Part shown: positions 555 through 45,700 of the stretch, piece by piece
Numbering within the stretch: position 1 is the stretch's first letter
Layout of the letters: the number at the start of each line of letters is the position of its first letter
Source of the DNA: Rhizaria sp. SCN 62-66
Taxonomy: Eukaryota
DNA: 64,000 bases
Assembly: GCA_001724265.1 (NCBI GenBank)
Contig: MEDY01000083.1
Span: 1 to 64,000 of the forward strand
Direction of reading: 5' to 3'
The notes under the pieces: generated by a model
The model's input: the letters and a program-made list of their open reading frames with translations, nothing else
What the model was told of the DNA's origin: nothing
Database searches by the model: none
Position numbers and translations under genes: made by a program

Positions 555-1748
555 TCACGCGGTGGTTGTCTGGGACATGGTGGCCTCGATCTGCGCGATC
601 TTGGCCTCCCACTGCTCGCGGACGGCGCGCTCGGCCTTCTCCTTGGCGTCCTTGAGCGAGACCTCGAAGGGCGGGTAGCAGATACCGACCTCGGTGACGA
701 TGCCCGTGAGGAACTTGAACGGCGTGACGTCGAACGCGGGGTTGTACACGGGGCAGTTGTCGGGCGCAACCTGCTCTGCGCCGACGTGGGTCACCTCGGT
801 GCCCGTGCGCTCCTCGATGACGATCTCGCGGCCCGTCTTGATGCCCAGGTCGATGGTCGGCGTCGGCACACACGCGAAGACGGGTACGCCAAACTCGCGC
901 GCGCACACCGCGAGCTTCATCGTCCCGATCTTGTTCGCCACGTCGCCGTTGGCCGCCACGCGGTCGGCGCCGAAGAGCACCAGGTCGACCTTGTTCTCGT
1001 ACATGAGGTGGCCCGCCGCGCCGTCGACGACGAGGTGCAGCGGCACGCCGGCCTGCGCCAGCTCGAACGCCGTCAGCTTCGCGCCCTGCAGCCGCGGCCG
1101 CGTCTCATCAACCCACACGTGGACGCCCTTGCCCTGCTCGTGCGCGCTGTAGATGACGCCGATCGCGGTGCCGTGGCCTACGGTCGCGAGCGCGCCCGTG
1201 TTGCAGTGGTGGATGATGTTGGCTCCGGGCTTTACCACGGCGGCGCCGAAGTCGCCCAGAGCGCGGTTGATGCGGATGTCCTCCAGCGCGAGGTCCTTGG
1301 CCTCGGTGAGCACGAGCTCAGCCAGCTGCGTGCCCGTCAGCCGCGCCGCGAAGCGTGTCGCAAGCTCGAGCAAGCGCGCGGTGGCCCACTCCAGGTTCAC
1401 CGCAGTTGGACGCGACGAGTCCAAATACGCCTTGGCCTCGCGCAGCGCCGCGACAACGTCCTCGCCTGTCGCGGGCACCGCCGCGGCGGGGTCGTAAGCG
1501 CGGAGCAGCGCGGCGAGGGCCATGCCGTAGGCGCCCGCGGCGCCGATGGCGGGCGCGCCGCGGATGGCCATGGTGTAGATGGCGTCGTAGACGTCCTTGG
1601 TGGTGGTGCAGTCGAAGAAAGCGATCTTGAGGGGCAAGTCGCGCTGATCGAGCATGCGAATCTTGCCGCCCTCGGCAGGATTGGAAGGGCCGACCCACTG
1701 AACGGAGATGAGCGGCTCGTTGTGGCCAGCGACGGTGACTTGCGCCAT
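555..1748 (-). CDS. MRI1: Methylthioribose-1-phosphate isomerase (methionine salvage), single exon, 397 aa
   Basis: Motifs [66 protein letters not shown]. Likely ATG at 1748 (MAQVTV...); stop TGA. Confidence 0.96.
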
Positions 1749-2320
1749 CAAATGCTGAGTCGTACGGGCGTAAAACAAAGGTGATAGCAAAAAATGAAAT
1801 TAGATAAAGAAATAATGCGGCAATTGAGCGGGGCATTGTGTGGTTTCAGACGCGGAGACGGAAGTATAAAAGCAAGGCAAACACCTCGAAATGTAGGCCT
1901 TTCTCGTCATCATCGCGAGTGGAATGCAGCGACGGTCTCGGACGACGAGCAGCGTTTCGCTCGGACCGAAAAAAACTGACTCGATAGCCGACGAACAAGA
2001 GACGACGAGCTAGGTGGGATACGCAAGCAGATGTTTCTAGGTCGAAACTATCATGGTTTGTGAAACAAAGTTTATGTCGGGGAAGACACATAACTGTAGA
2101 AAACGTGTATAATTCTGAAAGTGTGTTTGTGTTGGGCTATCTGTCCCCGCACTTTGGGGCAGAAACAGGCGACAAGCATGAATTCCCCAAACCTCCGGAT
2201 GTGTCATTCCTGCCTCATTATTACAACCCTTGCTTTCATAACTGCATTATCTCACCCTGTTATATTACTTATTGCTGCCTGTTTTGTTTTCTTTGCTGTG
2301 TATAGACTCGTAGACTCACA

Positions 2321-3900
2321 ATGTCTCTCATCTTCGGCATGGGCAACCCCCTCCTGGACATCTCTGTCGAGGCCCCCGACTCCCTCATGGCCAAGTACAA
2401 GCTCACTTGCCCCAACGCCATCCTCGCTGACGAGACCCACACCGAGCTCTACAAGGAGATCACCGAGGCCCCCTTTAAGCCCGAGTTCGTTGCCGGTGGC
2501 TCTGCCCAGAACACCATCCGCGTCGCTCAGTGGATGCTCCAGGTTCGTTCGCAATCACCACGTGCTCGCCTTCAAACATGCATTTGACGCACTATATCTC
2601 TGCACCTCGCTCTCAAACTCTATCTCTCGACAGAATATTTGTGTGGCAATATGTTTTCAAAAAGAATAATCTCACCACATCTTAATATTGTTGATATATC
2701 ACTTCTTCAACTCTCGCCTTTCAGGAGCCCAACTCCACCGTCTACGCCGGCTGCGTCGGCAAGGACGCCTACGCCGACACTCTCACTGAGTGCATTAAGA
2801 AGGACAACGTCCAGTCCGCCTACGCCGTCAACGAGGAGCTCCCCACCGGCACCTGCGCCGTCCTTGTCGTCCACAAGGACCGCTCCATGGTTGCCAATCT
2901 CGCTGCCGCCAACTCGTACGTGCACCTCGCAAACACTTCAACGCGATATGTCTCAACGAAACCGTCGTTTCATCAAATAATATTTTGAAGTCGCATTTTT
3001 CACCGAACAAGCTATCTAGAAAACCTAAATTCCCCTCCAAAGCAATCACTTATATCTCATATAACCCTTCGTTATTGATTCGCACACCTACTCGCCCAAC
3101 ACAGCTACAAGATCGACCACCTCAAGGCCCCCGAGGTCGAGGCTCTCTGGAAGAAGGCCTCGCACTTCTTTGTCGAGGGCTACTTCCTCACCGTGACCCC
3201 CGAGTCCGTGCTGCTGCTCGCCGAGCACGCCACCGAGACCAAGAAGGAGTTCGGCTTCTCGCTCGCCGCGCCCTTCATCTGCTCCTTCTTCACCGAGCCC
3301 CTGCTCAAGGTCCTCGAGCACTCGACCCTCATCATCGGCAACGAGCACGAGGCCGAGGCGCTGGCCGAGAAGATGGGCTGGGACAACAAGGCCGACCCCG
3401 CGGCCGTGGCCAAGCACATCTCGGACAAGATCCCCAAGAAGTGCGCCGGCCCCCGCCTCGTCGTCATCACCAACGGCCCCCGCGACACCGTCATCTGCCA
3501 GGTACGACAATTAATATTGCATTTATCTCGCTGATATAGCTTTCTACGGAACTAATGTGATATTGTTATGTTTCATGACATGATTTTTCATGTTGGAATA
3601 TTGCTTATATTCCTTAACACGCGCATTTCCTCTCACAAATCTCATTTGTTATATCCCTATTTGTATTTGCTCCTCTTTTAGGACGGCGTCGTGACCTCGT
3701 ACGCCATCCCCAAGATGGCCGATGAGGACATCGTCGACGCCAACGGTGCCGGCGATGCCTTCGCTGGCGGCTTCGTCGCCGGCCAGGTCAAGGGCAAGGA
3801 CGTCAAGACCTGCGTCGCGGCCGGCATCTACGCCTCCCAGCTCATCCTCAAGACTGCTGGTACCACGCTCCCTTCCACCAAGCCCGAGTTCACCTTCTAA
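2321..3900 (+). CDS. ADK: Adenosine kinase (PfkB family), 4 exons
   Basis: Exons 2321-2542, 2725-2915, 3105-3501, 3682-3900 join in frame. Motifs GMGNPLLD, GGSAQNTIRVAQW, PTGTCAVLV, VANLAAAN, GNEHEA, DANGAGDAFAGG. Stop TAA. Confidence 0.95.
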
Positions 3901-4307
3901 GTGCCGTATATATCGCATTAAGCACTGTGAATGAGAGTGAGAGTGAGAGTTGAAGTTTATACACCTTGTCTCGCAGCGAAAACGGGAGTACGCAACGACA
4001 GTCTATCTAAATTGCTGCTGTTTTGTTGTTGCTCTTTCTGGTGACGGTGTGTTAGTATTACTTTATTAAAACAAAGTGAGATTTACAATACAACGAGTCT
4101 TTATTTACAAACACTTTGATCACAACAACATCTGCCAACCTCTATTTCACAAACATACGTTATGATGCGGATACAACTTTACCGTTTTCATGTGAATGTC
4201 ATCAGGATAGATTTAATTGAAGTTCATGTTTTGTATTGGCCAACATAAACTTTCTTGAAACAGTACATAATAACAAAGATATCTCAAAGCGAACGTATAT
4301 TCCGTGT

Positions 4308-7300
4308 TCAGATCATGCCCTTTGTGTTGTAGAGCGCATAGATGTCCATCGCGGTGCGCAGCGCGAGGCGCTCGAAGGAGCCTGCGTCGGGGCGGCCGCC
4401 GCCGACGAGCGCGGCGCTCTGCGGCGCCTGCACCAGCACGCGCGCCACGGCGGCGCCCGTCACGGCCGCGAAGGCCTGCGGGCACGAGGCGGCGAGACTG
4501 AGGGGCGCGCCGACGGAGAAGGCGACGGAGCGCAGCGTGTCGGCGACGGCGGGCGACGCGGGGGGCAAGGAAGTCGCGCTCGCAGTTGAAGCGTTGGCGT
4601 TGATGTCGCCGTTGCTGAAGAGGGGCAGGTCGCCGTTGGGCTGGATCGTGGCGTAGAGCGCGGTCCTGTCGAGCGAAAAGCAGAGGGGCTCCAGCGTGAG
4701 CGCAGTCAAGCACATTAGCACGGCCGAGGGGGAGAGAAGACAAGCCGCCTTGTCCTTGCGGTACTGGCGCTGCCGCAGCTTACAGTCGCTCAGCTGGGGC
4801 TTCTTCTTTTGACCGCCATTATTGTCCCCGTCATCGTCATCATCGCTATTGTCGTCGTCGTTGTCGTCGTCGGAGGTGGGGGGGAAGAGAGGGAACGAGT
4901 CGGCCGCAGCCGCAGCGAGCAGGGGTGTGTTTTTCAGTAAAGCTGCCGACAGCAGCCACATCCATGCGCTCTCGCCGCCGCTCGCGGTCACCACATGGTC
5001 GGTCTCCGCACTGGCGCCCGCGCCCGCGCCCGCGCCCGGACTGAGACTGCTCGTCGCACTCACACTTGCGCCACCGCTGCCGCTGCCGTCGCTGCTGTCC
5101 ATGACAAGAGTGGGCATCAGACGCAACAGCGCCATCGCCGCGGCGCCCTGCACCGCAAGCAGCAGCCCGTAGCCCCAGGCGAGCGCGGGGACGCAGATGG
5201 CGCCGTGGCGGCTGTAGAGCAGCGCCGCGCGCAGCAGCGCCTTGGCGTTTACAGGCACCTCCCCAACGTCCCCGCCCGCACTCGCACTCGCGGTGGCAGC
5301 GGCGGCGGCGGCAGCGGCGGGGCTGGGGTGAAGGAGGTTGAGGGACTTTGCTGTGGCGCGCGCGCGGGCGAGCAAGGGGAGAGCGGAGATCAATGCGGCA
5401 GCGGCGGCAGGTACGGGCACGACGTTGACCTTCCCAGAGCTAGAGCTAGAGCTAGAACTAGAACTAGAGCGCGAAGTTGATGTAGCAACGTCGTTGTTGT
5501 TGCTGCTGCTCGAGCTCAGAGAGAGGGGGCCGAGGGCGGGACGGGGCAAGGTGGCGGTGACGGCGTCGGTCGCAGTGCCCAGCGTCACAGCGCCGGCGTG
5601 TCCGACGTTCTTTGCACCCGCACTCGAACTTACGCTCGCAGTCTCAGTCGTGTTGTTGCCCTGCTCTTGTTCAGGCTGTTGTTGCTGCGTATCACCCTGC
5701 TGCTCCTGCTCTTGCTGCTGTTGTTGTTGTTGCTGCTGCTCGTCCTCTGCCTTTTCCTCGGCCGTCACCTCGGCCAGGTCGCCGAACATGTCGTAGTACA
5801 CGCGCGCAATGCGCGCCGCAGCCACGCACTCGGACACGCCAAACGCGCCCGCACCCGCACTTGCACTCTCACTCTCAGTGCGATCCACAGACGCATCGGT
5901 GTTGCCGTCGTTGCTGTTGAGGGCGCGCTCGGGGGCGGTCGCGGTCGCAGGCAGGCAGTCCCTGGTAACGGCGTCGGCAACGGGCACAAGCGCCGCCGCC
6001 GAGGCCAGCTCGGCCAGGCAGAGCGGGCAGGAGCAGTGGAACTGGAACTGGCGGTGGAGGTACCGCTGGCGTTGCTCGAACGTCAGGGGCACGAGCAGCC
6101 GCGAGTCGACGCCTGTCGTCGCAGAGGCAGTCGCGCCAGAGCCAGAGCCAGCGCTAGAGCTCGTCGCGGCGGCGAGAGACGGCAAGGACTTGAACAGAGG
6201 GTTGGCCTTGCCCCGCGTCTTTGCAGCGTGTGTATTCTTGTTAGCGTCAGAGTCCGCGTTGGCGCTGTTTTGAGCGGTAGCGAGCGTCACCTTGGCCCAC
6301 TCGGCGCCGGCCTCGGCGCGAATGAGCCCCGCGTGCACGGGCATGTAGCTGATGCAGATCTCCTCGCCCGCCGCGATGTCGCGCGTGGCGCGAAACTCGT
6401 GGATGCTCGGAATGAAAGCCGCGGCCCAGGGCACGTCATCCTCGGCCGTGGCAGAGAACCCGCCCAGCAGGGACTCGGTCTCGGTCACCACGTCCGCCTC
6501 GGTGTAAGCGGACGCATGATTGTACGCGCAAGTGGGTGCGGTCGCAGTCGAGGCATTAGCGTTAGACTCGGTCTTGGTGCTGCTGCTGGTGACGTTCGAG
6601 GCGACGAAGGTACTTAGCCGGACCCCCTTAGACAGCGCGGCGAGCGCGACCTCGCGCGCGTGGCGGGCGCGCGCCTCGCGGAAGCGCTGCCACTGCTTCT
6701 GCGTCGGCTGCAGCGTCAGCTTGACGGCGTTGGCCACGCACGAGTGGTTGGCCATGGCGCTGTGCAGCGCGATGCCCGTGGGGAACGAATTGAAGTGGAC
6801 AACGGCCACCAGGCGCAGCAGCGACTGCACCGCAGGCCCCAGCCACGCAGGCTCGGGCTCTGATGATGACTCCACAGGCGCAGCAGCAGCAGCAGCCGCG
6901 GCGGCCGCCTTGGCAACGGCGTTGGCCACGGCACCGTCCTCCTCCTCCTCGTCCTTCTGAGCCGCCGCCGGGCGAGGGATACGAGTCGGGCTATTGTTAG
7001 TGATGTTGGCATCGCTGTTCCCGGCCGCGGCTGCGAGACCGATTTGGCAGAGGCGGTCGAAGCCGGCGTGCGCGGCGACGGTCCTAAGCATGTCCCCGTA
7101 CGCAGCCTCGATGAAGCCGCGGTAGTCGCCCAGCTCGGCCCACGTGCGCGGGTACAGCGGCGCCAGGTCGCGGAGCAGCGCGCGCGCGGCGCGGGGCGGC
7201 GCGTCGAAAACGAGCTCCTGCACGAACTCGGTCTCCTGGCGCGAGTCGGCCGCGGCGCACTCCTCGGGGGACTTGAAGCGCCAGCGCGTGGGCTCGGCCA

Positions 7301-7796
7301 GCAGCAGAGCGCCGGCGGGGATGGGGGCCGTGGCGAGGAGCCCGCGCGCGCCGTCGCGGTGTGCAAGGTCGGTGGCCACAGTCACCAGCGGGGACTGGTA
7401 CAGCGGGGGCAGCAGGAAGCCGTCCTTGTGCACGCCTGCCAGCGCCGGGGGCGCGCCGGCAGCGCCGTCTGCAGCGAGAGAGCCGTGAGTGGCCGCTGTC
7501 GCGATGTCGGGGTGGGAGGCCGACGGACTGGCCAGGTAGGCCGAGATGAGCAGCGCGTGCTCGTCCTCGTCCTCGTCGTCGCAGTCGGCAGCGGCGGCGC
7601 CGGCTTCGGGGCTGTAGAGGCCGACAGGAGAGCGCTGCTTGGCCACTGCCGCTGCTGCGTTTGTGTTGTTGGTGTTGCTGGACTGGGGCAGAGCGGGGAG
7701 GTAGGCGGTGTAGGGGCGGGGCGCGGCCGCCTTGCGCACGATCGTCGTCGTCGCGCGGGGGGCCGCCGCGGGGGCGGGCTGGGCGCTACTACTCAT
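4308..7796 (-). CDS. SET-domain (SMYD-like) lysine methyltransferase with long low-complexity insertions, single exon
   Basis: Split SET motifs RGLLATAPIPAGALLLAEP, MANHSCVANA, FRATRDIAAGEEICISYM and post-SET FQFHCSCPLC. First ATG at 7796; stop TGA. Confidence 0.85.
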   Translation of the reverse strand: MSSSAQPAPAAAPRATTTIVRKAAAPRPYTAYLPALPQSSNTNNTNAAAAVAKQRSPVGLYSPEAGAAAADCDDEDEDEHALLISAYLASPSASHPDIATAATHGSLAADGAAGAPPALAGVHKDGFLLPPLYQSPLVTVATDLAHRDGARGLLATAPIPAGALLLAEPTRWRFKSPEECAAADSRQETEFVQELVFDAPPRAARALLRDLAPLYPRTWAELGDYRGFIEAAYGDMLRTVAAHAGFDRLCQIGLAAAAGNSDANITNNSPTRIPRPAAAQKDEEEEDGAVANAVAKAAAAAAAAAAPVESSSEPEPAWLGPAVQSLLRLVAVVHFNSFPTGIALHSAMANHSCVANAVKLTLQPTQKQWQRFREARARHAREVALAALSKGVRLSTFVASNVTSSSTKTESNANASTATAPTCAYNHASAYTEADVVTETESLLGGFSATAEDDVPWAAAFIPSIHEFRATRDIAAGEEICISYMPVHAGLIRAEAGAEWAKVTLATAQNSANADSDANKNTHAAKTRGKANPLFKSLPSLAAATSSSAGSGSGATASATTGVDSRLLVPLTFEQRQRYLHRQFQFHCSCPLCLAELASAAALVPVADAVTRDCLPATATAPERALNSNDGNTDASVDRTESESASAGAGAFGVSECVAAARIARVYYDMFGDLAEVTAEEKAEDEQQQQQQQQQEQEQQGDTQQQQPEQEQGNNTTETASVSSSAGAKNVGHAGAVTLGTATDAVTATLPRPALGPLSLSSSSSNNNDVATSTSRSSSSSSSSSSSGKVNVVPVPAAAAALISALPLLARARATAKSLNLLHPSPAAAAAAAATASASAGGDVGEVPVNAKALLRAALLYSRHGAICVPALAWGYGLLLAVQGAAAMALLRLMPTLVMDSSDGSGSGGASVSATSSLSPGAGAGAGASAETDHVVTASGGESAWMWLLSAALLKNTPLLAAAAADSFPLFPPTSDDDNDDDNSDDDDDGDNNGGQKKKPQLSDCKLRQRQYRKDKAACLLSPSAVLMCLTALTLEPLCFSLDRTALYATIQPNGDLPLFSNGDINANASTASATSLPPASPAVADTLRSVAFSVGAPLSLAASCPQAFAAVTGAAVARVLVQAPQSAALVGGGRPDAGSFERLALRTAMDIYALYNTKGMI

Positions 7797-8371
7797 CGGG
7801 CGCAGCTGTTGCCGAGGAGGTCTGCGGGCGCGGGGCGTGGGGTTGGAGCGTAGAGGGCGAGGTGAGTCGTGGCTTAGATGAGGTGAAGCGGAGTATAGAC
7901 AGCGTTGTAAGATATACTGGCAAAACACAATTAAGATGTGTCAGTTTAGTTGTCATAAAGTGCAGAAATAATTACGCTGTCGATCAGGGGAGGGAGAACA
8001 TTTGCGCTGCCGGAAGTGCTCCAGTGCCCCGAGCGACGCCCACGGTCACTTCTGTCATTGCCTCTCTGGCCCGACTGGAGCGTCAACTTTGAGGTATCAA
8101 AGCACACCAACGCGACCACAGATGGTGAAAACAGTCGCACTCTAGAATATTAAATTGAGTTACTGGATGAATTCCTAATTTATACTTCTTCAATCGCAAC
8201 ATACCCCTCACGCTCTTCATTGTCCGTGTCCCTCTTCCCCACTCTGTCCTCTGTGTTCGTCTCCGCAGCAAGCCACCTCCCCGCGCCCGCGCTCCGCCGC
8301 CTGCGTCTTTCCTCTCTCCTACTCCCCGTACTCGCCTCTCTCGCCCCCGCGCGAACCGACTAGTGCGCCCC

Positions 8372-9740
8372 ATGGATCGCCGCAACGCACGTCTGCGCCG
8401 CGAGTATCTCTACCGCAAGTCCCTCGAGACTGACGAGGCGTACGTTCCCGCTCCACCACTACTCATTTCACTTCTCTTTTATATCAGCACTTGTTAAACC
8501 CAAACTACTTTATTATAGCTTTCTTGTTGCTATAATATCTATTTCCACTCTTATTTTTTGCTCATATGCTTTTCTTCTCTCTCTTCATGGCCAAAACAAC
8601 AAACCCAACGAACTTCTCGCTCCCTCTGCCGTTCCGCCGCTCTTGTCTGCCTTTGACGTCTTTTCTTTCTCTGCTGCTGCTGTCCCCGCCCCACAGCGCC
8701 GAGCACGACAAGAAGATCCAGCTCAAGGAGGCGCTCGAGTCGGGAAAGCGTATCCCCAAGGCGCTGCAGCGCGAGGCCGACGACCTCAAAGACGCGCTTG
8801 AGCTCGACGACCCGTCTACGCAGAAGCTGCGCACGCACATCGACGATGAGTACCAGAACGTCGGCATCTACGACCCCAAGATCCTCATCACGTCCTCGCG
8901 CGACCCCTCGAACCGGCTGCTGCAGTTCGTCAAGGAGCTCCGCCTGTGCCTCCCCAACGCGCAGCGCATCAACCGCGGTGGCACCATCATCTCTGAGCTC
9001 GGTACGCTTATATCTAGCTATAATCGCGCTTTATGAAAATATCGTCGTTTTATTAATGTATCACTTAATTTTGTTTTATTGTGTAGAATTTATTTTTTAC
9101 TCAACACATATCCATCATGCTCTCCAAACTCACTTCTCTCTCTCTCTCTCACCCCGCTTCTTTGCTTTGTTGTGTCCCCTCGGCATCACATCACACCACA
9201 GTGGAGATCTGCCGCAAGAACGACTTCTCGGACTTAGTGCTGGTGCACGAGCACCGCGGCGAGCCCGACGGCCTGATCATCTCGCACATGCCCTACGGAC
9301 CCACGGCCTACTTCTCGCTCTCCAACTGCGTGCTGCGCCACGACATCAAGACCGTGGACATGGGCACCGTGTCCGAGGCCTTCCCGCACCTCGTGTTCCA
9401 CAACATGGCCTCGAAGCTGGGCCAGCGCACGGCGAGCATCCTCAAGGCGTTGTACCCTGTGCCCAAGGACGACGCGCGCCGCGTCATGTCCTTCATCAAC
9501 CGCAACGACGTCATCTCATTCCGCCACCACGTGTACAAGAAGAACGGCGTGCAGGACCGCGCGGCGGGCAAGAAGGAGATCGAGCTGGCCGAGGTGGGGC
9601 CCCGGTTTGAGATGCGCATGTACCAGATCAAGCTGGGCACCGCCGAGATGACCGAGGCCGAGACCGAGTGGGTGCTGCGGCCCTACCACAACGAGGCCGC
9701 CAAGCGTCAGCTCATCGCAGGCTACGCGCACGACAAGTGA
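8372..9740 (+). CDS. IMP4: U3 snoRNP protein Imp4 (Brix domain), 3 exons
   Basis: Exons 8372-8439, 8697-9001, 9202-9740. N-terminus MDRRNARLRREYLYRK; motifs DPKILITSSRDPS, HEHRGEPDGLIISHMPYGPTAYF, ISFRHH, LAEVGPRFEM. Stop TGA. Confidence 0.96.
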
Positions 9741-10334
9741 GCAGCGCGGGCGTTTCGACGACTGCAAGCGTGAAGCGACAACGCCGTGTTGTTGCGTGAG
9801 AGTGATGTTGGGTTGTTGAGACTGTTGTGGGGCCTGTTGCGGACCATGTTACATCTTAAAGATGCATGTTATGTGTTTTAGGATAATACAGATATAATTA
9901 TATACGATATCACAACTTCAATCTTAGTCGATGTTGTTACGATCTGTTTGTACTCTTGCAAAGTTCCTGTAACAAGCTTGTGCGTGACTGCTCTCTGCGT
10001 GCGTCGAAGGGGGGACTGCTAGCGCTTTGCGGAAAAAGAGTTTAAGTTGGTGAGATGTCCGTCTGTTGATATTTAAAGAAGGGTTCTGGTTACTGCGATA
10101 GTAATCCTTTATTTTTCGTCAATAATGTCTTCTCTAGAGTTCACGCAGAGCTCAGTAGCATGCATCGGATTTCCACTATGCTGAACCACAGCACACCACC
10201 TCTCTCTCGCCCCCCTCGCACACTGCGTCTCACCTCTTTCGCCCTACGCTCATACCACTACTCTCGTTGTGTAGACAGCATTGTTGCCCGCAGTGTCTAA
10301 CGTCGCGAAGTTGAGTAGTGTTAGTGGTATCAAA

Positions 10335-12050
10335 ATGCGCTCACAGTTGCTCCAACAGCTCGCCTCTTAGGCCGCCGGCCCCGCGCCCTCCTCCGTGTCA
10401 TCCTCTTCGAAAAGTACGACATATCCTCATCAAATAATGCCAATAACTCAAACAACACTTCTTTATTGTTAAAGAACTACTATTGTGTCCTTATACTAAT
10501 TTTTTTCTGTAATATCTCTTTATTGCATATCCCCGCAATCCTAACTTCACCTCACGCACCCAACGTGTCTACTCTCTGTTTCCCCCAGACTCGTCTGCGC
10601 ACCGCTACAAGCCGCTGCCGCCCGTGGTGCGCGACCTGCAGTCGACGCTGGCGCAGCTGACCTACGGCCCGGGCGCGCTGTCCGCCGCGCTGCACCGCCA
10701 CTTCGTGCCGCTGTCTCACGACGACGCCACCGAGCGCTTCCTCACGCGCACGCTCTCGCTCTACGGCGCGTGCTCGCTGTCCAACTCTCTCTTCTCGGGG
10801 CTGCGATCGCTGTTGGGCAACTTCATGTCGCACGCCAACGTGCTTGCGCTGCTCAACACGGGTCGTATGCACGTGCTCTCGGCGGGACAGATGCACCACC
10901 TGCTGGCGCAGAGCTACGCGCGCGCTCCGCTCGACGTCGCCACGCTCAACCCCGAGCAGGCTCTCGCCCGCGCGCGCGCAACCACCTTTGCCAGCTTCAA
11001 CCCAGTGCTCTCCGCGAGCACCGGCGCCCTCGCCGGGCCCCGCGGCAACAGCACGAGCAGCAACAGCAACAGCAACAGCAGCAGTTCTCTGTCTGGTGCC
11101 AACTCTGCTGCTGCTGGTCCCGGGCTGGGAGAGTGGGCCGCGCCGCCGCCGTCACTGGGCTCCATCATTGCCGCCATGCCCCCCTTAGACGGTGTAAGTG
11201 TCTCCCCAGCAGACGACTCGACTCCACCTGCTGAGACTGTGGGGATGACTGCGCCTGCGCCTGTTGCGAGTGCGCCTATGACCGCGGCGGACTACGTGAC
11301 CGCCGCGCTCGCTGCAGTGGGACCCGCTGTCGACACGGACGAGCTGCTCGAGCACGCCCAACAACAGCATCAGCAGCAGCGCAATACTGCCAACGGCAGT
11401 GCGAGTGCGAGCGAGGACTCTCTGTCGCTGCCGTGCTTCGGGTCGTACCTGGACATCGGGGCCGGCGACGGTGCGGTGACGGCGCACGTCGCGCCGCTCT
11501 TCACGCACACTTCGGCGACCGAGGTGGCCCCGCGCATGTGCTCTCGCCTGCGCGCGCACGGCTTCACCGTGTACGAGACTTACGATATCACCACGGGGAT
11601 CCCCGCCGAGGCGCGCTTCGACACCATCTCGATTTTCAACGTCATCGACCGCTGCGACAAGCCCCTCTCGCTGCTGCGCGACGCGCGCGCGCGCCTCCGC
11701 GGGCCTGACTCGCGGCTGGTACTGTCTGTGCCGCTGCCGCTGCAGCCCTCGGTCGAGTTCGCGCCGCGCGAGTGGCGGGCCCCGACGGAGCGGATCGCGC
11801 CCGCGATGTGCTACTGCCAGCTCGACTGGGAGCAGGCCGTCGAGTTCCTCGTCCGCGACGTCGTTACGCCCGCGGGGCTCAGAGTGCGCGCCGTGTCCCG
11901 GCTGCCTTATCTGTCCGAGGGGTCGACTGCCAGGCCCTACTACGCACTCGATGACGCCGTGCTTGTGCTCTCCGCCGCCGAAACCGTGCCTGCCGCTACC
12001 GCGACCGCTCCCGCGACCGCTCCCGCTACTACTGCTACTGCTGCTGCTGT

Positions 12051-12087
<37 letters not shown>

Positions 12088-12156
12088 CCGGCCGCGAGTG
12101 CGGGTGCGCATGCTGTGGCTCCGACTGCCGCTGTGACTGTTGTAGAGTAGATGTGA
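10335..12156 (+). CDS. METTL9: METTL9/DREV-family protein-histidine methyltransferase, 2 exons, with in-frame TAG codons
   Basis: Exon 1 is 10335-10413 (MRSQLLQQLAS[TAG]AAGP...). Intron GTACGA...CAG is 10414-10588; exon 2 is in frame with ORF 10624-12150. Motifs LLNTGRMHVLS, YLDIGAGDG, ATEV, FNVIDRCDKP, LPYLSEG, YYALDDAVLVL. Ends TAG-ATG-TGA (12148-12156). Confidence 0.88.
12025..12087 (+). repeat. Imperfect (GCT)n tract encoding a poly-Ala/Thr tail of METTL9
   Basis: Run of GCT/ACT/GTT triplets read directly. Confidence 0.85.
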
Positions 12157-12455
12157 GTGAGCCTGCTGTGTGAACGTGAGAATGTGATGATGTTGCAAAT
12201 CTAATGTGTGCAAGTATGCGCTTGAATTTCTATAAGTGTACAGCGTATTACTTTGTGAGGAGGGCCAATTGTTGTAGATTATTAATTGCCTCCGACTAGA
12301 CCGGAATAAACTTGATTGATTTGTTTTGCTTTCGCATGTTGAGAGGCTATGTATGGTTGAATTATGATAAGTAGTATGATATCTGTACGTAGATAAGTAA
12401 AATATTAGGTAAAATAGTTGAAGAACTTGATTTGTTTCGTGAAACAAGTGTCAAT

Positions 12456-16073: not shown

Positions 16074-16627
16074 CAAGTCAAGCTGAGCAGAGCAGAGACG
16101 CTCCTTGAGTTAAGAAGAGCTTGCAGAGTGAAATCAGTCGAAAACAAAGTTGCTCGGGTCGGTGCTATGCAAGTTCTGAACAAATAATATAACAAAGACT
16201 GAAAAATTGGCTCAAATTTATCGTCGGATCGAATGAAAAATGACTGTTTTACAGAGAATACACGTCACTGCAAATGCTGATAAACAATGCTCAATGAAGC
16301 GCGAAGCGAGAGTGACTGACACGAGCCGAGCTTTTTTGCGAACCGTGGCCGACCAAAATGGGAGTCTTCGAAGCAACCGTTTCTTCATCGTGAACTATCT
16401 CAGCTCCGGGCTTGGGATCGCCAAACGTCGCTAATTCTTCTTTGCTCGTATTGTTCGCTTAATAATTATTCTAAACATTACTTTGGTTTCGCGTCTCACG
16501 ACTTTCCTGCCCCACACTGCGTGCCTCTATTCCGACTCTCGCCGACCTCCTGCAGGCTACCAACAAGACACCACAAAGTCAACGTTTCCCCGCCGCCTCC
16601 ACCACTTTTCGTTCTGCTTTTAGCACC

Positions 16628-19367: not shown

Positions 19368-19765
19368 GTAAGTGCGTTGGACATAATATTATTGTCCAAT
19401 AACAGCAACAAATGAGACAACAAAGTCATGACTCTGTTTTTGACGTGTGTTGTTGTTGGTGGTGTCTGCTATGTACATGTACTGCGTTTCTCTTCTCCTA
19501 CCTAGTCTTTTCGTGTCTCTATTTTCGATATCTTGTTTGTTTGAACACCAACAGCAAATGTCAGTCACATGTTCTTTGCACAGTGATTACTGCATTTGTT
19601 TCTAATAACGTTTGTAGAATATAACAACAAATATACACATTTCTAGTATGTCTTTTATCAGATAATTGCATGTATTCTCCGAATTTCGGTTAAACTATGA
19701 TAAAACTACTACGTAAACTGGTATGAACTCTAATGTTGACTCGTCGATGCTTTTGCTTCGTATTC

Positions 19766-35871: not shown

Positions 35872-36952
35872 GTTCGCGAGCGTTTTGAGTGCTTCCAAGC
35901 GCATCGTCCTGTGCAAGCTCTCGCGCTGCATCGCATCGCCACCGAGAGGCGCGTGGAGCACGCGAGTACGTGCAGCTACCCCGCGAAGTTGGTCAGCGCC
36001 GAGCCGGCGACGACGGCCGCCAGGCGTAGGTCGCCGTCGCCGTCACCCGGCGCGGGGGGTCTCGGTCGGCTTGTCCAACCGGCTCTCGAGCTGGCCGGTC
36101 AACTCGAAGAAGCTCAATGTGCGTTTTTTGTTGGGTTGCGTGTTGGTTGGACGTCGACTTCAGAGGAGGAGGATTATTATGATGCTATCGTGCTCCTTAG
36201 TCCCTATTCAAAGTAAACGTAGTTAATTCTTGAGTGAACTATCTTTGTTTATATAGAAGAGCAGCAAAGCATCGCTGTCTTTAAGTTATTGTTTGGTCAT
36301 CTTCTTTTTTCGCGCTAAGCTTACAATCAGGAATAAGTTGTGTTGTTGTTTTTTAGGTTCACAGAGATATGTTTGTGTTTGCAGTTACAAATATGCGTGT
36401 TTTTCATTTGCTTTATCATTAAATTATATAATTTATTGCAATAAATATAAGTTTGAAAAGGAACGCGATCACTTTGTTCGAGTGTCTGGGTTCTTTATGA
36501 TTCGACCCGACACTCCAGCTTCGGCGCGTCTCTGAGAAGCGCCATCCTCAGAATCAGCTCGGCGGGGCCCATCACCGTGGTCAGCGCGGCCCGCGAACGC
36601 GCTGTTTTTTGTCTGGGCGATGTCGCAGCGAGCCGCGGGGGGAGGGGGTATTAGTATTACTAGTAATACCTCCCTGAGCTCTATTATAATAATCATATGG
36701 TAATGAGGCAGCACATCATTATGTGTGGACGTCATGTGCAGCCAATTTTAATAATATTTTTGTTCTCCTCCTCAGTTTTTTTTGTGCCGAACACCTTCAT
36801 CGATATAATGTAAAAGATTCGGGATTCTAGTTCATACGCCGTAAAATATTTTTGTGAAGTTTGTACACAAATATATCAAACGAAAAAATGAATTTTCTGT
36901 AAAATTAATTAAGTATTAGTAACAAAGATTCGGGCTGTTAGGACCCAAGGAC

Positions 36953-37025
36953 AGCCGCATAGCACAGTCGGAAGTGCGCCCGCTTTACACGCGGGAGGTA
37001 ATGGGATCGAAACCCATTGCGGCTA
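36953..37025 (+). tRNA. tRNA-Val (anticodon TAC)
   Basis: Full cloverleaf: acceptor AGCCGCA/TGCGGCT plus discriminator A, D stem GCAC/GTGC, anticodon stem CCCGC/GCGGG with loop TT-TAC-AC, T stem ATGGG/CCCAT with loop ATCGAAA. Confidence 0.93.
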
Positions 37026-37032
37026 CGCTTAA

Positions 37033-37041
37033 TTTTTTTTT
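37033..37041 (+). terminator. Oligo-T Pol III terminator of tRNA-Val
   Basis: T-run 8 nt downstream of the tRNA 3' end. Confidence 0.8.
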
Positions 37042-38542
37042 GCTTCTGCGACTTCCGCAACCAGGCGCATCAGCAAGGCGCTCATGACCATTTTTTTTTG
37101 CAACCCCCGGCGCTCTCCGACCCCGCGACGATAACTTTCAGTCACTTCTGGCGCTCTGTCAGTGCTCAGCGGTGTCACGCTATGTAACACTGTGCTGCTT
37201 GTTGTTTGTAAACAGTTGACCTGCGAGCAGTGATCCTGTCCAAATATGGATATGGGGCAGATATCAAGTGCTGGGAAGCTGCTGTCAATGTTCCGCCGTT
37301 GTACATGTCCAGCATTTACATTTCCTGTTAATACTTGCATTCCGTGTTCAGCTGGCGCGTGTACCGCGCTGTTGCCAGTCGGTAGCGCACGAACTGTGTG
37401 TAGTTTCCGCGCACGGCTGTTGGTCCCCTTTTCGCCGCGCCGCTCTTTCTTACCCCCGTAAGACTCGCGCCGACTTTGCGCTATTTCTCTCATCACTTCT
37501 AATATCACTCTGTGCGGCCGCCGTCGGCGCCCTCGCACTTTGGTACTAGTACTGTTGACACGCGCTTTGCTTCCTTTCATCTTGCGCCACGCGCGTGCTT
37601 GACTCATATGTTTGTGTTTGCGCTTCCGTCGCCGCTCTTCGCCACAGTCGCCGCCGCCTCTCATTGTCGCTGCCGCACTCTGCTGCCGCTTCCGCGTCGC
37701 AGCTCTTCGCTTCCCCGGCCACGCCACGACTCTGACAGCCCTTGTCACTCCTCGCCGTCGACTCCGCCTTAAAAGCGGCCCGCTTGCACCTACCGGCTTA
37801 TCTGCGCATTTATAGTCAACACCGGCGTCGGCAACTGTTTGCTTTGAGAACGCGCATTGTGTTACGGTCGTATCTATGCACATGCAGTTTCCTTTTGCGA
37901 AATCCGTCGCGCTACCCGCAAACGTCGCGGGTAATAAAAAAATGCGTTTAAGCACATAAAAACGACGCAGCGCGCTTGATAACGAGCACGTGGACGAAGC
38001 TATGGTGCCACTTGTAACTGGTTTGAGCTTGAAGAACCAAACCTGCGAGCACTAGATCACTGTCAGCGAAGTGGTTTTTTAAGGCAAAAGATCAAAATCA
38101 AGTGTGTATTAACAATACTCTATATTAAGCAGTTCAAACAAAGTTGAGCTTATTTTTTTGAGGTATAACTACCTCTTATCGAAGCACGTGCATCATCATA
38201 CATTTTTCTCGACACTGTAGGCAAGATATACTTGGCTGAGTAAACATTTCTACATCAATTAAACTTGAATTACAAAGCATCATAGTGTCAACATAATATA
38301 GCAAAGTTCAAGGCAATTATATAATGTTTTCATGGAGATATCCTTCAGAAACTGTCTCTGAACAGACCCGTTACAGCGTGACCGAGGGTGACTGTGGGCT
38401 GGCCCTCGCGAAAGGCAGAAGAGGACAGTTAGAAGACCGCGAGTCCGGGTGTTCGCAAGTCTGTTTGTATCTAGCGTATGTGATCGTCGCTTGCGTTTGT
38501 TTACCGCTCACAAGTTTTTTTATTTCTTTTGGTTCTTTTTAG

Positions 38543-41500
38543 ATGTTTTCTCGCACCGTAACTGCGTGTCGGGGGGCATTCCATGGCCCGATTCAGATGC
38601 CGGCCCAGCCTCCGCGTCTGACTCCCTCCTCCTCGTCTTTCTCGTCGTCCCCAAACAACCGCCGTGGCGGAAACGCTGAGGAAGCGTCCTCTGCCATGGT
38701 TTCCCGCGTCGAGAACTCTCTCCGCTCTATGCTGCGCACCACCACGCCTGCTGCGGAGGCCCTCGTCTCGAGTCTCCCTGCGCTCAAGCGCGCTGCTCTG
38801 CGCGACACGATGACCGAGACCGACGGCTCCTCTCTGTCGGCCTCCTCCGCGGGCGCCGCCTCGGGCATCTCCTACGTCGAGCGCGTGGACCGGCTTGCGC
38901 AGCTGCCGCGCGTCGACGGCGTGCGCTCCCCGCTCGTCGCCGACGCCCTGGACGAGGCCGCGCTGCACCGCGCCGCGCACCAACTCGGCGCGCGCGTCGT
39001 CGCGCTCGACGCCTCGGGCAAGCCCGTCAACAAGCTTGTCGGCGGTGGAGAGGCCGTGCTGCTCGAGAGGCGCCGCGCGAACGCCGCCGCCGCGCTGGCC
39101 GCCGTCTCTCGCCAAAGCAACAGCACCACTGACGTCGAAAACGATAATCAAGGGGACAACGACCCGACGTCTCAGAGCGCGAGCGCTCGTCTTGACTCCG
39201 ACTCGGCGCCGTTCGCAGCAGCCTCAGACTCCACCGACAACAATACCAGCGTTAGCTCCAGCTCTAGCTTCAGTTATAGCGCCGTTGCCTCGAGTGCGAG
39301 TGGCGACCACGCCGACGCGCCTCGTGTGGACCCCGACTGGAGCGCTGATTTGCTCGAACTGGGGCTCTTTGACTCGCAGGTCAAGCAGCAGCACCTGACC
39401 GACGGCGCGACCTTTGCGCTCACGCACAAGTCGCAACAATACCATGAGAATGAGAATGACGACGATGAGGCTGGTTATGGCTTTGATAGCAACAGTGTGA
39501 ACAATAACACGTCGTCGTTTTCGGGCTCGTTGCACGCCGAGCGCGACGCTAACGCCGCGAGTGCGGCCCGCGGCGCACAGTTCTCCCTTCCCCCGAACCC
39601 GAGCAGCAGCAACAGTACCAAGAGCGGTGCGAAGCAAGTCTCGTCTTCCGCGAGCGCGTCCTAGGACGCTCGGTCGAGCGCCTCGCACTTGGACGACGGG
39701 TCCAAGGGGCCCGTTCTCTACACCACCCGCACGCCGGCCTCGCTGCCCATCACAGCTCGCCTCAACGAGTCCATCTCCTCTGCATCCAACGACAGTAACA
39801 CTTCTACCAACGGCTCGCTGAGCGCCGCAGTGCGGAAGACTCTCGCGCCCGCGCTGTCGTCGTCCGCCGCGCTGCCCGACGGCGTGTCCCCGTCGGACGC
39901 GGTCTTCACGCACGGCCTCATCCTGAACCCCGACGCCGTCTCGGCCTCGGCGTCCTCAGTGGCCACGGTCCCCGCGGAGGCCGTGGAGCGCGCGCACCGC
40001 GAACGCATCCGCGACACGCTGCGCGGCTTCGCGGCCGCCCGCCGGCGCGGCGAGCTACGGCGCGACGACGGCAGCGCCATGACGGTCCGCGAGGCCGCCG
40101 CCGCGCTGGGCGTCAATGTGCGCGGGCAAAAGGCGCTGCGCCGGCTCGAAGAGACAGGCGAGGTGCCCAAGGAAGCGATCCCTGCGCTGCCGACCACGCG
40201 CGAGGTCTCCAAGTCCTACGGTAAGCTGCTGGTGCGCACTCTGCACGACGTGGCCGCGGTGGTGGCCGAGGTGGGCGAGAGCGCGGCGACGGGCGGGCAG
40301 CGCGAGTGGGTCGACAAGGCCTCGGGCCGCACGGTCATGCTCCCACCCTCGGACGGCGAGACGACGGCGCACCTGCCGCCGCCGCTAGCCGCGGCCGTCG
40401 AGTCTGCCGAGAAGGTGTTCAACTCGTTCGTGCTGACGGCCCCGCTGGAGGCGACGCACTACGCGATGATGATGACGTTGTACGGGCGCGTCGACATGCC
40501 GATCAAGGCCGCGGCCGCGTTTGACGCGCTCCGAGCCTCGGACTCGGCCGTGCCAGACACGGTCGCGTTCAACGTCATGCTGGGCATCATGGTGCGCGCC
40601 AACAAGGTCGCCGCGGCGTGCCAGCTGTTCGAGGAGATGCGCAGCATGGCGCACGTCACGGGCGCCTCCCCCGACGCCGTGACCTACACCACCGTCATCT
40701 CCGCGCTGGGTAAGATCGCCGACCGCGCTGGCGCGCTGACGGTTTTCTCGCAGATGCGCAAGGACGGCATCGCACCCACCGTGCCCGCGTGGACGGCTGT
40801 GATCGATGCCATGTGCCGCGCCAACGACTTCAAGGCCGGACTGCGGCTTCTGCACGACATGCGCGAGTCGGGCTCGGTGCCCACCGCGGGCACCTACCGC
40901 GCCGTCGCCGTCTCGTCCTGCCGCGCGGGCCACGTCAAGCTGTTCCTTGCGCTGGCTGAGCAGATGCGGCGCGACGGCCACGCGCTCGACCCCGTCCTGC
41001 TCGCTTCCGTCATCCGCGGCTTCGGCGAGGCGGGCAAGGCGCTGGAGGCCATCCGCGTGCACCGGCAGCTCTCGCTGGGCGCCTTCGGGCCGGAGCTGCG
41101 GCCGACGCAGCTGACGTACAACGCGCTGCTCGAGACGCTCGCGGACCCGCACGCGTGGGGCAAGCTGTCGCTGCCGCCGCTCGCGCTCGACGCCGGCATG
41201 CAGGTGCTGCAGGAGGGCATCCTGTCGGGCATTTTCCCGTTCCCGTACGAAACGCGCGATCAGAGCGGTGTGCTTGACTTGAGGCCGTACCACCGCAACG
41301 CCGTGCTGTTCCCCATTCACCTGTTTCTGAACTTGTTGGTGTCGCCGATGCTGGTTTCTGCGGACCGCGTGGCGCGCATGCCGTCGACGATTGCACACGT
41401 AGACCGGTCCTCCGACTTCGTCTTCAGCTCCGTGGCGATCCCCCGGCGCGGCGTGCTGATGCTGGGCGCGCGCGAGGCCCGCAAGCCGTGGTCGGCCGCG

Positions 41501-42094: not shown

Positions 42095-42703
42095 CTCAGC
42101 AGTGACAACTAATGCTAAAGTATGACTACATTCTTTTACTAAGAAAGCAAGTTGTACAAGACGATTAACGATCTAATAGCCCTTATTTATTCTTAATTTT
42201 ATTAAAAGATAAGTGAATTAACTTATTTTTGTTGTGGATATACACAATTCTATTTATTTGTTCTTCATCTCTCTCATGTTTTTGTGTGTTAATGTTACGC
42301 CACTGACCTTTGGCATAGTATGTCTTACTTTTCTGGGAGTGTGCGCTTTAAAAATTAGCTAGATACTGTATAATAGATTCAATATTTCCTTAAAAATATG
42401 TTAATAGATCCATTCAGACTTGTATTCTTTCCCGAGATATTGTTTTGTTATATTTCGGACCATATCTTAATGCACACCTGTATTCTTTGCTCGGCGATTG
42501 CGGCCACCAACGGCTGGGGCGGGAAAGGTGGTCAATATCGCGCCAGGAATGTCTCGCTCCACGATCGAACATTTGGCATAAGACACAACTTTGGAGTATT
42601 TAAACGAATTGAGATATACATATTTTTACTAATGTATCAAAGGTCACAATCTAACCCTGTCATCCACACACTTTTGATTCGTCCTGAATCACTCTTTTCG
42701 CAG

Positions 42704-45700
42704 ATGTCGAGCAACAGCAGCGGCGGTGGCGGCGACGCGCCCCGCTCTGCGGCCGCAGGCCAGGCGGCATCGAGCTCACGCAACTACCACAGTGAGGCCG
42801 TCCGCGACGACTGGGATACTCCTCAGTCCTACAACAACACGAACAAAGACAACAGCGGCGTGGCTCCTGCTCCTCGCGGCTACGGCCAGGAGAACCCTGC
42901 CTCTGGCGGCGGCGGCGGCGGCGGCTACGGCTCTGGCGGCCGCAACGCTCCCGGCGGTGGTTATGGCAACAACACCAACCCACGCAACTCCTACGGCGGC
43001 GGCGGCGGCGGCGGTCGCGGCGGCTACGGACAGCAGCAGCAGCCGCCGCCGTTCCAGCAGCAGCCCCGCGGCCCGCCTTTCTACCCTCCGCAGCAGCAGC
43101 ACCAGCAGCACCCGCAGCATTTTCAGCAGCAGCAGCAGTACCAGTACGGTGGTCCGCAGCAGCACCACCAGCAGGGCCCGGGCCAACAGTACTTTAACAC
43201 ACACGGTCAGTACCCTCCTCAGCACCAGCAGCACCAGCAGCAGCAGTACGGCCGCCCTACCTACCACGGCCACGGCGGCCACGGCCACGGCGGCGGCGGC
43301 TACCAGCAGCAGCACCCCCGCGGGCCGCCCCCGTCCTCGATGCCCCCCGCGGCGGCGGCGGCGATGAACGCCGCCGTGGCCGCGGCCCCCGCCATGCACC
43401 CGCTGCTCGAGGGCGTTGCGCGATCGAACCCCTCCGTGCCGCTGCCGCCGATGCCCGCGCCACTGGCGTACAACCCCGCCGCCAGCGCCGCGGGCTCGGC
43501 GGGCCCCGCGGGCGCGCGCGGGGGCGCGTACGGGCAGACGGGTCCCGAGTGGCACGGCGGCCGCCAGCACCACAAGCACCAGTTCAAGGACGCCTCGCGC
43601 CTGCTGCTGCGCGACGTGGCCGACGCCGCGCGCATCGGCGGTGTGTCTGCGGCGCCCAACGCGGGCGCGGACCCGCTGCCGCCGCCCGTGCTGGCGTGGG
43701 CGCTGGCCGAGCTGGCGGCGCGCGAGAGGGATTGGCGTGCTGCGGCTGACGCGGCGCGCAGCGCGGCAGAGGCGGCGCGCGCCGCGGCGCTGAAGGAGAA
43801 GGAGGCGGGCTCGAGCAAGCCGGCCAGCGCTTCGAGCGAGAGCGCTAGTTCTGACGCTTCGAAGTCTGAGGAGACCCAGGAACAGACTGGGACTGAGGCT
43901 GACACGACTCCGAAGTCCGAGACTGACAAGGCGGAGGCCAAGACTGAGATGTCCGACGCCAGCGACAACAGCGAGAACAGCAAAAAGACCGACTCCAAGG
44001 ACGCCTCTGCCGCTGCCGCTGTTGCTGTTGCGACGACTCCCGAGGAGCGTCTGGCGGCGAGCAAGGTCGCGCTGCTGGCGGAGCTGCCCGCCGACTCGCC
44101 GTACCACGCGCTGGGCGTGCTCGACGCCGTGCTCGACATGCTGCGCACGTTCCGCGGCTACACGCGCGCGCCGGGGCTTTCGCTGCCGTTCCTGCAGTTC
44201 CTGGAGGCCAAGTTCCCCATCAACCCCGTGGTGATGCTCTACTGCCTCATCCGCATCGCCGTGCGCTACCCCGTCGCACCTGTGGTCAAGGCCTACATCG
44301 CGCTGCAGGCGAGCCCGAGCGAGTTCGTCAACCTGCCGATCCCGACTGAGGACTCGTGGTTCATCCACCGCGCCGTGTGGGAGGGCGACCGCGCCGTGGT
44401 GCGCGCGCTGGCATCGTTCGGCGCCATCACAAACCGCTACAACCAGTACGGCGAGCACCCCGTCCAGGTGATTAACTCGCGCCTCGAGCAGCAGACCGAG
44501 GCTGGCCGTCGGCCGTACAACCCTTTCTGGTTCGAGGCGAACTACGCGCCGCAGATCACGCGCGCGGACGTCGACGCCATGCGCGGCGTGCTGCAGGAGA
44601 CGCTCTTCAGCGGCGCCGGTCCGCGTGCGCCGGATGCGGTGCTGCTCGAGTCGATGAAGCAGGCCGAGCTGGAGAGCACCACGCTCTGGCTGCAGAGCAT
44701 CCTTGCCGACGGCAAGAAGAAGGCCGCCGCCGCCGCTGCCGCGGGCACTGGCGCGCGGTCTGGCGACGCCGCTGAGGGCGACGCCGAGGGCGCGGAGGCC
44801 AAGGCGGAGGGCGACGAGGGCGTGATCACGCAGAACCACGTGTTTGTGTACGGCATCCCGTTCGAGTACCCACTCGCGGACATCAAGTCGTGGTTCTCCG
44901 CCTGCGGTGAGATCACGCGCATGCACGCCTTTGTCAATAAGGGTTCATTCACCGACGTCAAGGAGGTACGTGGACTTCAGCGAAGCTATAAGTCGAACTG
45001 GGTCTTGGAATGAAACTTGTGTTTTTGTTTGTGATGTGATTGTTCTGCAAAAAACTTGTTCATACTATTGCATTCTTACACATTACACGCATTGTATTCT
45101 CCTGATTGTTTTGCTATATCTTTTAGAACAAGAACAAGAGCGGCGCCAAGGACGCTGAGGACGGCACGGTGCAGCTGCGCCACCTCGGCGAGTGCGTCAT
45201 CGAGTTCGCGGATCCCGTCTGCGTGGCCAAAGCGCTTACGTACGACAAGTACCCGCTGTTGACGCGCACTATGCACGTCACGCTGACGCGCCCCACAGCG
45301 GTGCAGCGCAAGGCATGGACGTACGTGACTGCAAACTTCTTCTAACTTAACGTTGATCATTTTCGGATTTTTATTTCTTTATTTAAACTTACACCTTGTT
45401 ATTAAATAACAAAGAGCTATTTTCACTTGAAATCACCCCTAAATATATCTCACAACACACTTATTGATTTGTCAACCGCTGTGATTCTGTCTAGCGCCGA
45501 GGCCCGGGCGAAACGCGTGGCTGACCAGGACTCGACCCTGACGGCCTCCGAGCGCCAGCAGCACGCCGCGGCGACTGCGCGGCCGCTGGGCGAGATCAAG
45601 GCCGAGGCGGCGGAGCGCATGCAGCTTGCCAAGGAGCGCGCCGCCAAGCGCGCCGAGAAGGCCGCTCGCAAGAAGGAGGCCAAGCGCGCCGCCAAGGCCG

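Follow-up and report, generated by a model that had tools for sequence, protein, structure and literature searches.

Acceptor-like sites without donors ahead of the genes of a putative sainouroid cercozoan suggest spliced-leader trans-splicing

The window analysed here is the whole 64-kb stretch of eukaryotic DNA (61% G+C) at positions 1 to 64,000 of contig MEDY01000083.1 (Rhizaria sp. SCN 62-66). It carries 14 genes with a visible start and a very long frame that continues past the right edge. Pfam matches support MRI1, ADK, SET, METTL9, CFAP91, CFDP1, an aminotransferase, a rhomboid protein, COX10, a PPR protein, IMP4 and NOP9, while no Pfam match was found for an RS-rich gene and the first exon of an RRM gene; both names are those of an initial annotation of this DNA. 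That annotation had noticed a splice-acceptor-like YAG (Y, pyrimidine) close to nearly every start codon and had proposed either spliced-leader (SL) trans-splicing or near-universal introns in the 5' untranslated region (5' UTR). Judged from the sequence, most genes of the window are probably trans-spliced to a leader, in a lineage for which no prior report was found; no shared leader was found, and no SL RNA gene in the window.

Twenty introns of 135–289 nt were modelled. Eighteen of them start with GTACG, one with GTTCG and one with GTAAG, and all 20 end in YAG. The first introns within coding regions carry a standard donor, and the frames of the gene models are open except for four TAGs. 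Start codons are supported by homologues for MRI1 and ADK (2 of 14). The other 12 starts are those of the initial annotation and were checked for an open frame alone, the one of METTL9 requiring read-through of a TAG.

Acceptor-like sites and donors ahead of the start codons

A YAG 0–10 nt upstream of the ATG was counted in 13 of the 14 genes, which reproduces the earlier count and compares with about 3.7 of 14 by chance. The gaps also agreed with those given before: none for the aminotransferase, rhomboid, PPR and RRM genes, 1 nt for COX10, 4 nt for CFAP91, 6 nt for MRI1, 7 nt for ADK and CFDP1, 8 nt for IMP4, 9 nt for SET and the RS-rich gene and 10 nt for METTL9. NOP9 is the exception, with an AAG 16 nt before its ATG and the nearest YAG 116 nt away. 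Shuffling the 60 or 150 nt above the starts with dinucleotide content preserved gave means of 3.7 and 3.6 of 14, and ten genes were reached by none of 3000 shuffles per setting. When the anchors were moved 14–299 nt upstream, the mean was 2.9 and the maximum 7 of 14. On both strands together, 365 of 1418 ATGs have a YAG at that distance, and the binomial P for 13 of 14 is 2e-7.

All sites within 140 nt of each start were then scored with a matrix built from the intron ends, and one site was picked per gene. Of two good sites in CFDP1, the one farther upstream was taken; two sites tied in METTL9 and nearly tied in the RS-rich gene. The sites and the related features are as follows.

1755–1757, minus strand: CAG of MRI1, 6 nt before the ATG at 1748; score 9.7; AG-free zone of 128 nt; start confirmed by homologues
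2155–2305, plus strand: putative outron of ADK, poor in G, without a donor and with a branch-point-like motif whose distance to the AG is 52 nt; the 5' limit (2155) is taken from the average composition profile
2303–2305, plus strand: TAG of ADK, 15 nt before the ATG at 2321; score 10.4, compared with 3.4 for the initially annotated TAG at 2311–2313
7822–7824, minus strand: best CAG of SET, 25 nt before the ATG at 7796; the initially annotated CAG at 9 nt scores -2.1
8266–8268, plus strand: best CAG of IMP4, 103 nt before the ATG at 8372; the initially annotated TAG at 8 nt scores -0.2
10272–10274, plus strand: candidate TAG of METTL9, 60 nt before the ATG at 10335, tied with a CAG at 41 nt; the initially annotated TAG at 10 nt scores -6.7
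16176–16178, minus strand: candidate CAG of the RS-rich gene, 102 nt before the ATG at 16073; score 5.8, with 5.4 for the CAG at 9 nt
16553–16555, plus strand: candidate CAG of CFAP91, 72 nt before the ATG at 16628; score 7.2; AG-free zone of 150 nt; the TAG at 4 nt scores 6.0
21663–21680, minus strand: tandem CAGs of CFDP1, 7 and 22 nt before the ATG at 21655; scores 13.9 and 8.5
21752–21756, minus strand: GTACG above CFDP1; implied intron of 79–94 nt, below all 20 modelled introns (135–289 nt)
22063–22067, plus strand: GTACG above the aminotransferase, 201 nt before its acceptor and the sole one at intron distance
22261–22263, plus strand: TAG of the aminotransferase, adjoining the ATG at 22264; matrix score of just 0.6; AG-free zone of 189 nt
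26623–26625, minus strand: CAG of the rhomboid gene, adjoining the ATG at 26622
31461–31463, minus strand: candidate AAG (not YAG) of NOP9, 16 nt before the ATG at 31444, behind a pyrimidine tract and a branch-like motif
33103–33105, plus strand: best TAG of COX10, 95 nt before the ATG at 33201; the initially annotated CAG at 1 nt scores 0.8
38540–38542, plus strand: TAG of the PPR gene, adjoining the ATG at 38543; score 11.2
42701–42703, plus strand: CAG of the RRM gene, adjoining the ATG at 42704; score 6.5
46921–64000, minus strand: giant frame of more than 5690 uninterrupted codons that runs off the window end; it contains two adenylate/guanylate cyclase domains and extended regions of low complexity

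The intron-trained model prefers a site 15–103 nt upstream of the start in ADK, SET, IMP4, METTL9, the RS-rich gene, CFAP91 and COX10, so that the YAG nearest to the ATG is often not the best-scoring acceptor; for ADK, the RNA agrees with the model. The chosen acceptor is more than 10 nt away from the start in nine genes, eight of which nevertheless have an unexplained YAG within 10 nt. These near-ATG sites score well in CFDP1, the RS-rich gene and CFAP91, where they may be alternative acceptors. They score poorly in IMP4, METTL9, SET and COX10, which leaves room for a separate start-context signal.

The composition of the last 25 nt before the chosen AGs was A.15, C.32, G.16 and T.37, compared with.15,.31,.16 and.38 in introns. 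The upstream stretch is low in G to about -125 and neutral beyond -150 from the acceptor. AG-free zones measure 21–189 nt at the gene acceptors and 3–176 nt in introns. At 30–65 nt before the AG, 15 of 20 introns and 12 of 14 gene upstreams have a branch-point-like motif CT[ACG]A[CT], mainly in the form TCTCAC (nulls 6.7 and 4.1), and neither number was reached by any of 1000 dinucleotide shuffles. With a wider range of 15–90 nt, 12 of 14 genes compare with a null of 7.3 (P 0.014), and two narrower branch patterns were not enriched over that range (CT[AG]A[CT] 5 of 14, null 4.4). Going by these features, the sites chosen upstream of the genes are very probably real 3' splice sites. Above the acceptors, 21 ATGs were counted in 2100 nt (150 nt per gene, in 12 of the 14 genes), and none in the 516 nt between acceptor and start, although this zero follows partly from the way starts are picked.

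GTACG was found 130–300 nt upstream in one of the 14 genes, the aminotransferase (chance 2.0), in contrast to 18 of the 20 modelled introns. GTACG, GTTCG and GTAAG together occur at intron distance in five of 14 genes (chance 5.5). The scores of the best donor-like words are mildly depleted upstream of the acceptors (median 1.85 versus 3.8 in shuffles, P 0.03). Many genes thus have near their 5' end an acceptor with no standard donor upstream, as in SL trans-splicing; the standard donor at intron distance that marks an ordinary cis-spliced 5' UTR intron is present for the aminotransferase alone. With GTACG at intron distance in just one gene, ordinary 5' UTR introns in nearly every gene, the other proposal of the initial annotation, are unlikely. 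Both GTACG donors it had named, at 22063 (plus) and 21756 (minus), are present, but the one above CFDP1 is too near for the modelled intron range. The aminotransferase may have an ordinary 5' UTR intron.

RNA contigs and competing explanations

Assembled RNA contigs of four runs were compared with positions 400–20200, which comprise seven of the 14 starts; the four genes whose AG adjoins the ATG lie outside. Activated sludge and wastewater are the sources of the named runs that contain this stretch. Two of the four (X2 record 10 and X3 record 14, one sample) include an ADK mRNA from which all introns are removed. Both contigs match the window from 2304 on only, and the 24 and 25 letters 5' of this position match nowhere on the stretch. 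The point of departure is the AG of the top-scoring acceptor (2305), 15 nt before the ATG, and the AG at 7 nt counted in the initial annotation is read through. Among 14 AG/GT sites examined in 400–2290, none has a GTACG, GTTCG or GTAAG donor above the ADK acceptor, and none of the best-supported RNA joints listed leads into 2304.

SL trans-splicing of most genes at outron acceptors, as monocistronic units of a sainouroid cercozoan without operons, is the reading that we consider likely. Judging by the gene layout, each gene would be transcribed from its own, often shared divergent, promoter, and the composition would place the transcription start about 130–150 nt above the acceptor. The stretch above the acceptor would be an outron, with a branch point, a pyrimidine tract and a YAG and without a 5' splice site. 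An SL RNA with its gene elsewhere would provide a capped leader, and the spliceosome would attach this leader to the unpaired acceptor; the joining would strip the upstream ATGs and leave a 5' UTR of 0–100 nt. The leader would end in AG if the letters at 2304–2305 of the ADK contig belong to it, and YAGs nearer to the ATG would serve as alternative acceptors. Hallmarks of SL trans-splicing include a hypermodified cap and a branched outron product. A leader that supplies the AUG would rescue METTL9 without TAG read-through. It was not adopted since the apparent leader end is AG, both ADK and MRI1 possess conserved starts of their own and two other TAGs lie mid-gene.

The layout of the genes is that of single units. 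Four divergent pairs have start codons 555–609 nt apart (1749–2320, 7797–8371, 16074–16627 and 21656–22263) and another pair is 1757 nt apart; there are several convergent pairs, and same-strand neighbours are separated by about 600–2700 nt. Co-oriented genes with short spacers, as in SL-resolved operons, were not found in the window. CGGAAG and TCGCG words are scattered near the midpoints of the four divergent intergenic regions, where no shared motif was proven, and no common promoter word stood out in the intergenic regions.

Several observations weigh against trans-splicing or limit the case for it. No SL RNA gene was found in the 64-kb window. Rfam at gathering scores returned a tRNA-Val alone, without any rRNA gene, and an Rfam E-value scan of 31400–38600 gave the tRNA and two matches far under their gathering scores. 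Of 25 orphan donors in the intergenic DNA of the window, five are followed by a loose ATTTG and none by a convincing Sm site. The RNA evidence comes from a single gene in a single sample, and the leader itself was not read: loose ends elsewhere in these runs measure 18, 18, 18, 16 and 9 letters at mid-gene ends and 19–20 at the ADK 3' end, so that about 18 of the 24–25 ADK letters are probably a library tag and about six are unexplained. These six are compatible with the end of an AG-terminated leader, with a short cis exon, or with a start at 2304 plus primer overhang. X3 record 16 has seven loose letters at a donor, and a short cis exon looks alike. An X1 contig is unbroken over 8031–8439, across both IMP4 AGs, and halts exactly at the first donor. 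X1 also contains intron sequence and covers 30 of 30 bins, which indicates that DNA or precursor is present, and the colinear IMP4 contig may be either. Assemblers tend to lose short side branches such as a leader.

Relatives add to these points. The ADK mRNA of one relative (L001; protein about 80% alike) resembles the ADK 5' UTR of the window from the acceptor onward and has 49 further letters ending in AAG. A CAG that resembles an acceptor, 36 nt ahead of the ATG of this mRNA, is seemingly read through, and the opening 26 letters have the look of an acceptor that was kept and reveal no leader. The ADK mRNA of a second relative (L003) likewise shows a T-run with AAG, 11 nt ahead of the start, but is not identical to L001, and no identical leader is common to the two. 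L002 is genomic DNA of a more distant relative that uses GTACG donors; judged by eye, three of six starts there have a YAG no more than 10 nt away. There are also limits on the sequence analysis: the 30–65 nt motif window was fixed and the 'best' acceptors were picked after the data had been seen, and the intron search relied partly on GTACG, with RNA contigs bridging five of the 20 introns (three in ADK, one each in IMP4 and CFAP91).

Cis-splicing of 5' UTR introns in nearly all genes, with a very short first exon and a weak or non-standard donor, is in our view unlikely. Every feature on the acceptor side fits it equally well, the six loose ADK letters are indistinguishable from a short cis exon, the GTACG of the aminotransferase lies at a typical distance, and the intervals of 555–609 nt between divergent starts give room for such exons. 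The donor counts, which stay at or below chance for GTACG alone and for the three donors together, speak against it, as do the standard donors of the first coding-region introns and the lack of a joint into 2304 among the best-supported ones listed. ATATCCT was seen twice in the 14 upstreams (CFDP1 and PPR), too few for a general minor-spliceosome account.

It is quite unlikely that no splicing takes place and that the YAG is an initiator-type element, with transcription from its A, very short 5' UTRs and a pyrimidine-rich core promoter upstream. Four genes would then get a 2-nt UTR, and the branch-like motif at intron distance, the long AG-free zones and the strand-specific composition would be left unexplained; moreover, the related mRNA L001 reaches 62 nt above its ATG. 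Such an element would, on the other hand, account for the missing donors and the lack of ATGs below the site, and it could account for the poorly scoring near-ATG YAGs of IMP4, METTL9, SET and COX10. The match of the ADK contig also starts precisely with the A of the ADK TAG (2304), and a tag together with an overhang of random primers could explain the additional letters. We judge it very unlikely that the state is mixed or a relic, in which only some genes or transcripts are trans-spliced, or in which lost 5' exons or a former SL system have left acceptors behind, and many mRNAs run through the sites. Found at 13–14 of 14 genes, the signal is no less sharp than that of functional introns, and unspliced mRNAs would have to tolerate the ATGs that 12 of 14 genes have in the 150 nt above the acceptor. 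The colinear X1 contig across the IMP4 AGs, the sequence that L001 seems to retain above an acceptor-like site and the weaker signal in L002 would fit it. SL trans-splicing at outron acceptors is the reading kept. The outron proposal of the initial annotation is partly supported: the acceptors look like unpaired intron-type sites, and one ADK RNA contig leaves the genome at such a site.

Affiliation of the organism and its genetic code

The nearest named relative of the ADK is that of Guttulinopsis vulgaris, a sainouroid cercozoan. In a maximum-likelihood tree of 33 selected ADKs, the protein of the window falls into a 13-row clade with Guttulinopsis vulgaris (support 100/100), and a quick tree of 67 ADK rows agrees with this clade. 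The organism would be a sainouroid (Cercozoa, Sainouroidea), as it groups with a named member in a tree of this one gene that contains no other named rhizarian. CFAP91 suggests that it is flagellated. Of the metagenome contigs, the best 80 of 430 ADK matches were retained, and three are inside the sainouroid clade; no relative turned up when prokaryote genomes and viral contigs were scanned for ADK. The ADK entry of a relative (P0135) and the METTL9 entry of a relative (P0265) each give 16122 bases as the length of the longest contig, which hints that the two genes are adjacent there as well.

Candidate leaders were also sought among these sequences. The T-run ending in AAG of L001 and L003 is not claimed as a shared leader, as the alignment shows none. 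A 17-letter piece of the L001 5' end had no match in the window at three mismatches and one in a viral contig, which was taken as chance. The N-terminal extensions of related proteins contain no shared translated leader. Three ADK mRNAs outside the sainouroid clade (L013 1–17, L015 1–16 and L016 1–21) have the same first 16 letters ending in GAG, likely the spliced leader of another lineage by their shared sequence. It differs from the cryptomonad and Paulinella leaders given in the papers cited below, and a literature text search gave no match.

In-frame TAGs (plus strand) are found at 10368 (METTL9 codon 12), 12148 (two codons before the METTL9 TGA), 34396 (COX10) and 39662 (PPR). Coding-like sequence flanks three of the four on both sides. 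With TAG read as sense, all 15 modelled stops are TAA or TGA, and the conserved region of METTL9 starts well ahead of the first Met after the TAG (residue 106). The giant frame counts against a sense UAG, with no TAG in 5666 codons and TTA five times. No conserved column at the in-frame TAGs fixes the encoded residue. The codon pattern indicates that UAG is probably a rare sense codon in this organism; in the sainouroid exLh, it encodes leucine according to the accessible text of PMC5304391. Two long frames of L002 (5214–7238 and 18825–21341, minus strand) stop at or near TAG, which may be a normal stop there.

COX10 (33201–34395, plus) and the PPR protein (38543–39661, plus) have N-terminal extensions of 300–370 residues without a Pfam match, whose beginnings resemble mitochondrial targeting peptides by eye. 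In both genes, the in-frame TAG sits between the extension and the known domain. MRI1 (555–1748, minus) is intronless, and its nearest named relatives (approximately 55–60% identity) are from an oomycete, a labyrinthulid and Chloroflexota. The best 80 of 597 matches in a scan of prokaryote genomes are all titled prokaryotes, and a bacterial origin of the gene is possible from its sequence. The tRNA-Val(TAC) gene (36953–37026, plus) stands alone within a 2.7-kb intergenic stretch.

Comparison with known spliced-leader systems

The literature, searched mostly without subscription journals or supplements, reports SL trans-splicing in Rhizaria for Paulinella only and none for sainouroids; the accessible text of PMC6133090, PMC12582326 and PMC7986045 contains no report of it in sainouroids. 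The occurrence in the cercozoan Paulinella, to which the initial annotation had referred, is confirmed by PMC6053224. As far as the accessible text of the sources cited here and below goes, leaders were found in Paulinella micropora and P. chromatophora and not in Bigelowiella, Plasmodiophora and Reticulomyxa (Matsuo et al., PMC6053224), and the Paulinella SL genes were not found in the heterotrophic P. ovalis (Gabr et al., PMC9311404). Given these surveys, a sainouroid case would be a separate occurrence. We lean, with some reserve, towards the full picture of a flagellated sainouroid of a free-living wastewater lineage that puts a leader on nearly all of its mRNAs, keeps cis introns and single-gene promoters and apparently reads UAG as sense; it would be the second SL occurrence in Rhizaria, apart from the photosynthetic Paulinella.

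Whether SL trans-splicing arose repeatedly or was lost repeatedly, and whether it came before or after operons, is an open question. For the one case described in Rhizaria, a connection with the transfer of genes out of a young plastid has been drawn (PMC6053224, PMC9311404). If the reading is true, a heterotrophic cercozoan with near-universal SL trans-splicing and no operons would weaken this link and provide a clean case of spliced leaders without polycistrons. Moreover, if specific to the lineage, the leader could serve as a primer with which the mRNAs of these poorly sampled protists could be fished from wastewater and soil metatranscriptomes.

Paulinella shares with the window the phylum and monocistronic genes with an outron, a pyrimidine-rich tract and an AG before the start (PMC6053224). 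The transcription start sites of its calmodulin gene, 136–151 nt above the ATG, are near the 130–150 nt proposed for the window genes. Its leader is known (28–33 nt, ending in TTTTCTG), as are its SL RNA genes, whereas the putative leader of the window genes seemingly ends in AG. The cryptomonads Guillardia theta and Hanusia phi are similar in having cis introns beside SL trans-splicing, alternative acceptors and no substantial operons (PMC5619915). They are an unrelated lineage with leaders on an estimated share of at least one fifth of the genes, whereas the acceptor-first pattern is seen in nearly all genes of the window. In the eustigmatophytes Monodopsis, Vischeria and Microchloropsis, 48–82% of the genes have an acceptor within 100 bp, with several sites per gene, and the leader ends in AG, as proposed here (PMC8570151). 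Their leader and SL RNA genes are known and operons are predicted, while no operons are indicated in the window. The monocistronic outrons of C. elegans and Ciona likewise have an unpaired acceptor behind an intron-like upstream stretch with ATGs (PMC3074122). An inserted donor shifts their splicing to cis, which fits the slight donor depletion in the window. Outrons of C. elegans and Ciona are about 70% A+U, unlike those proposed for the window, which are rich in C+T, poor in G and provided with a branch-point-like motif.

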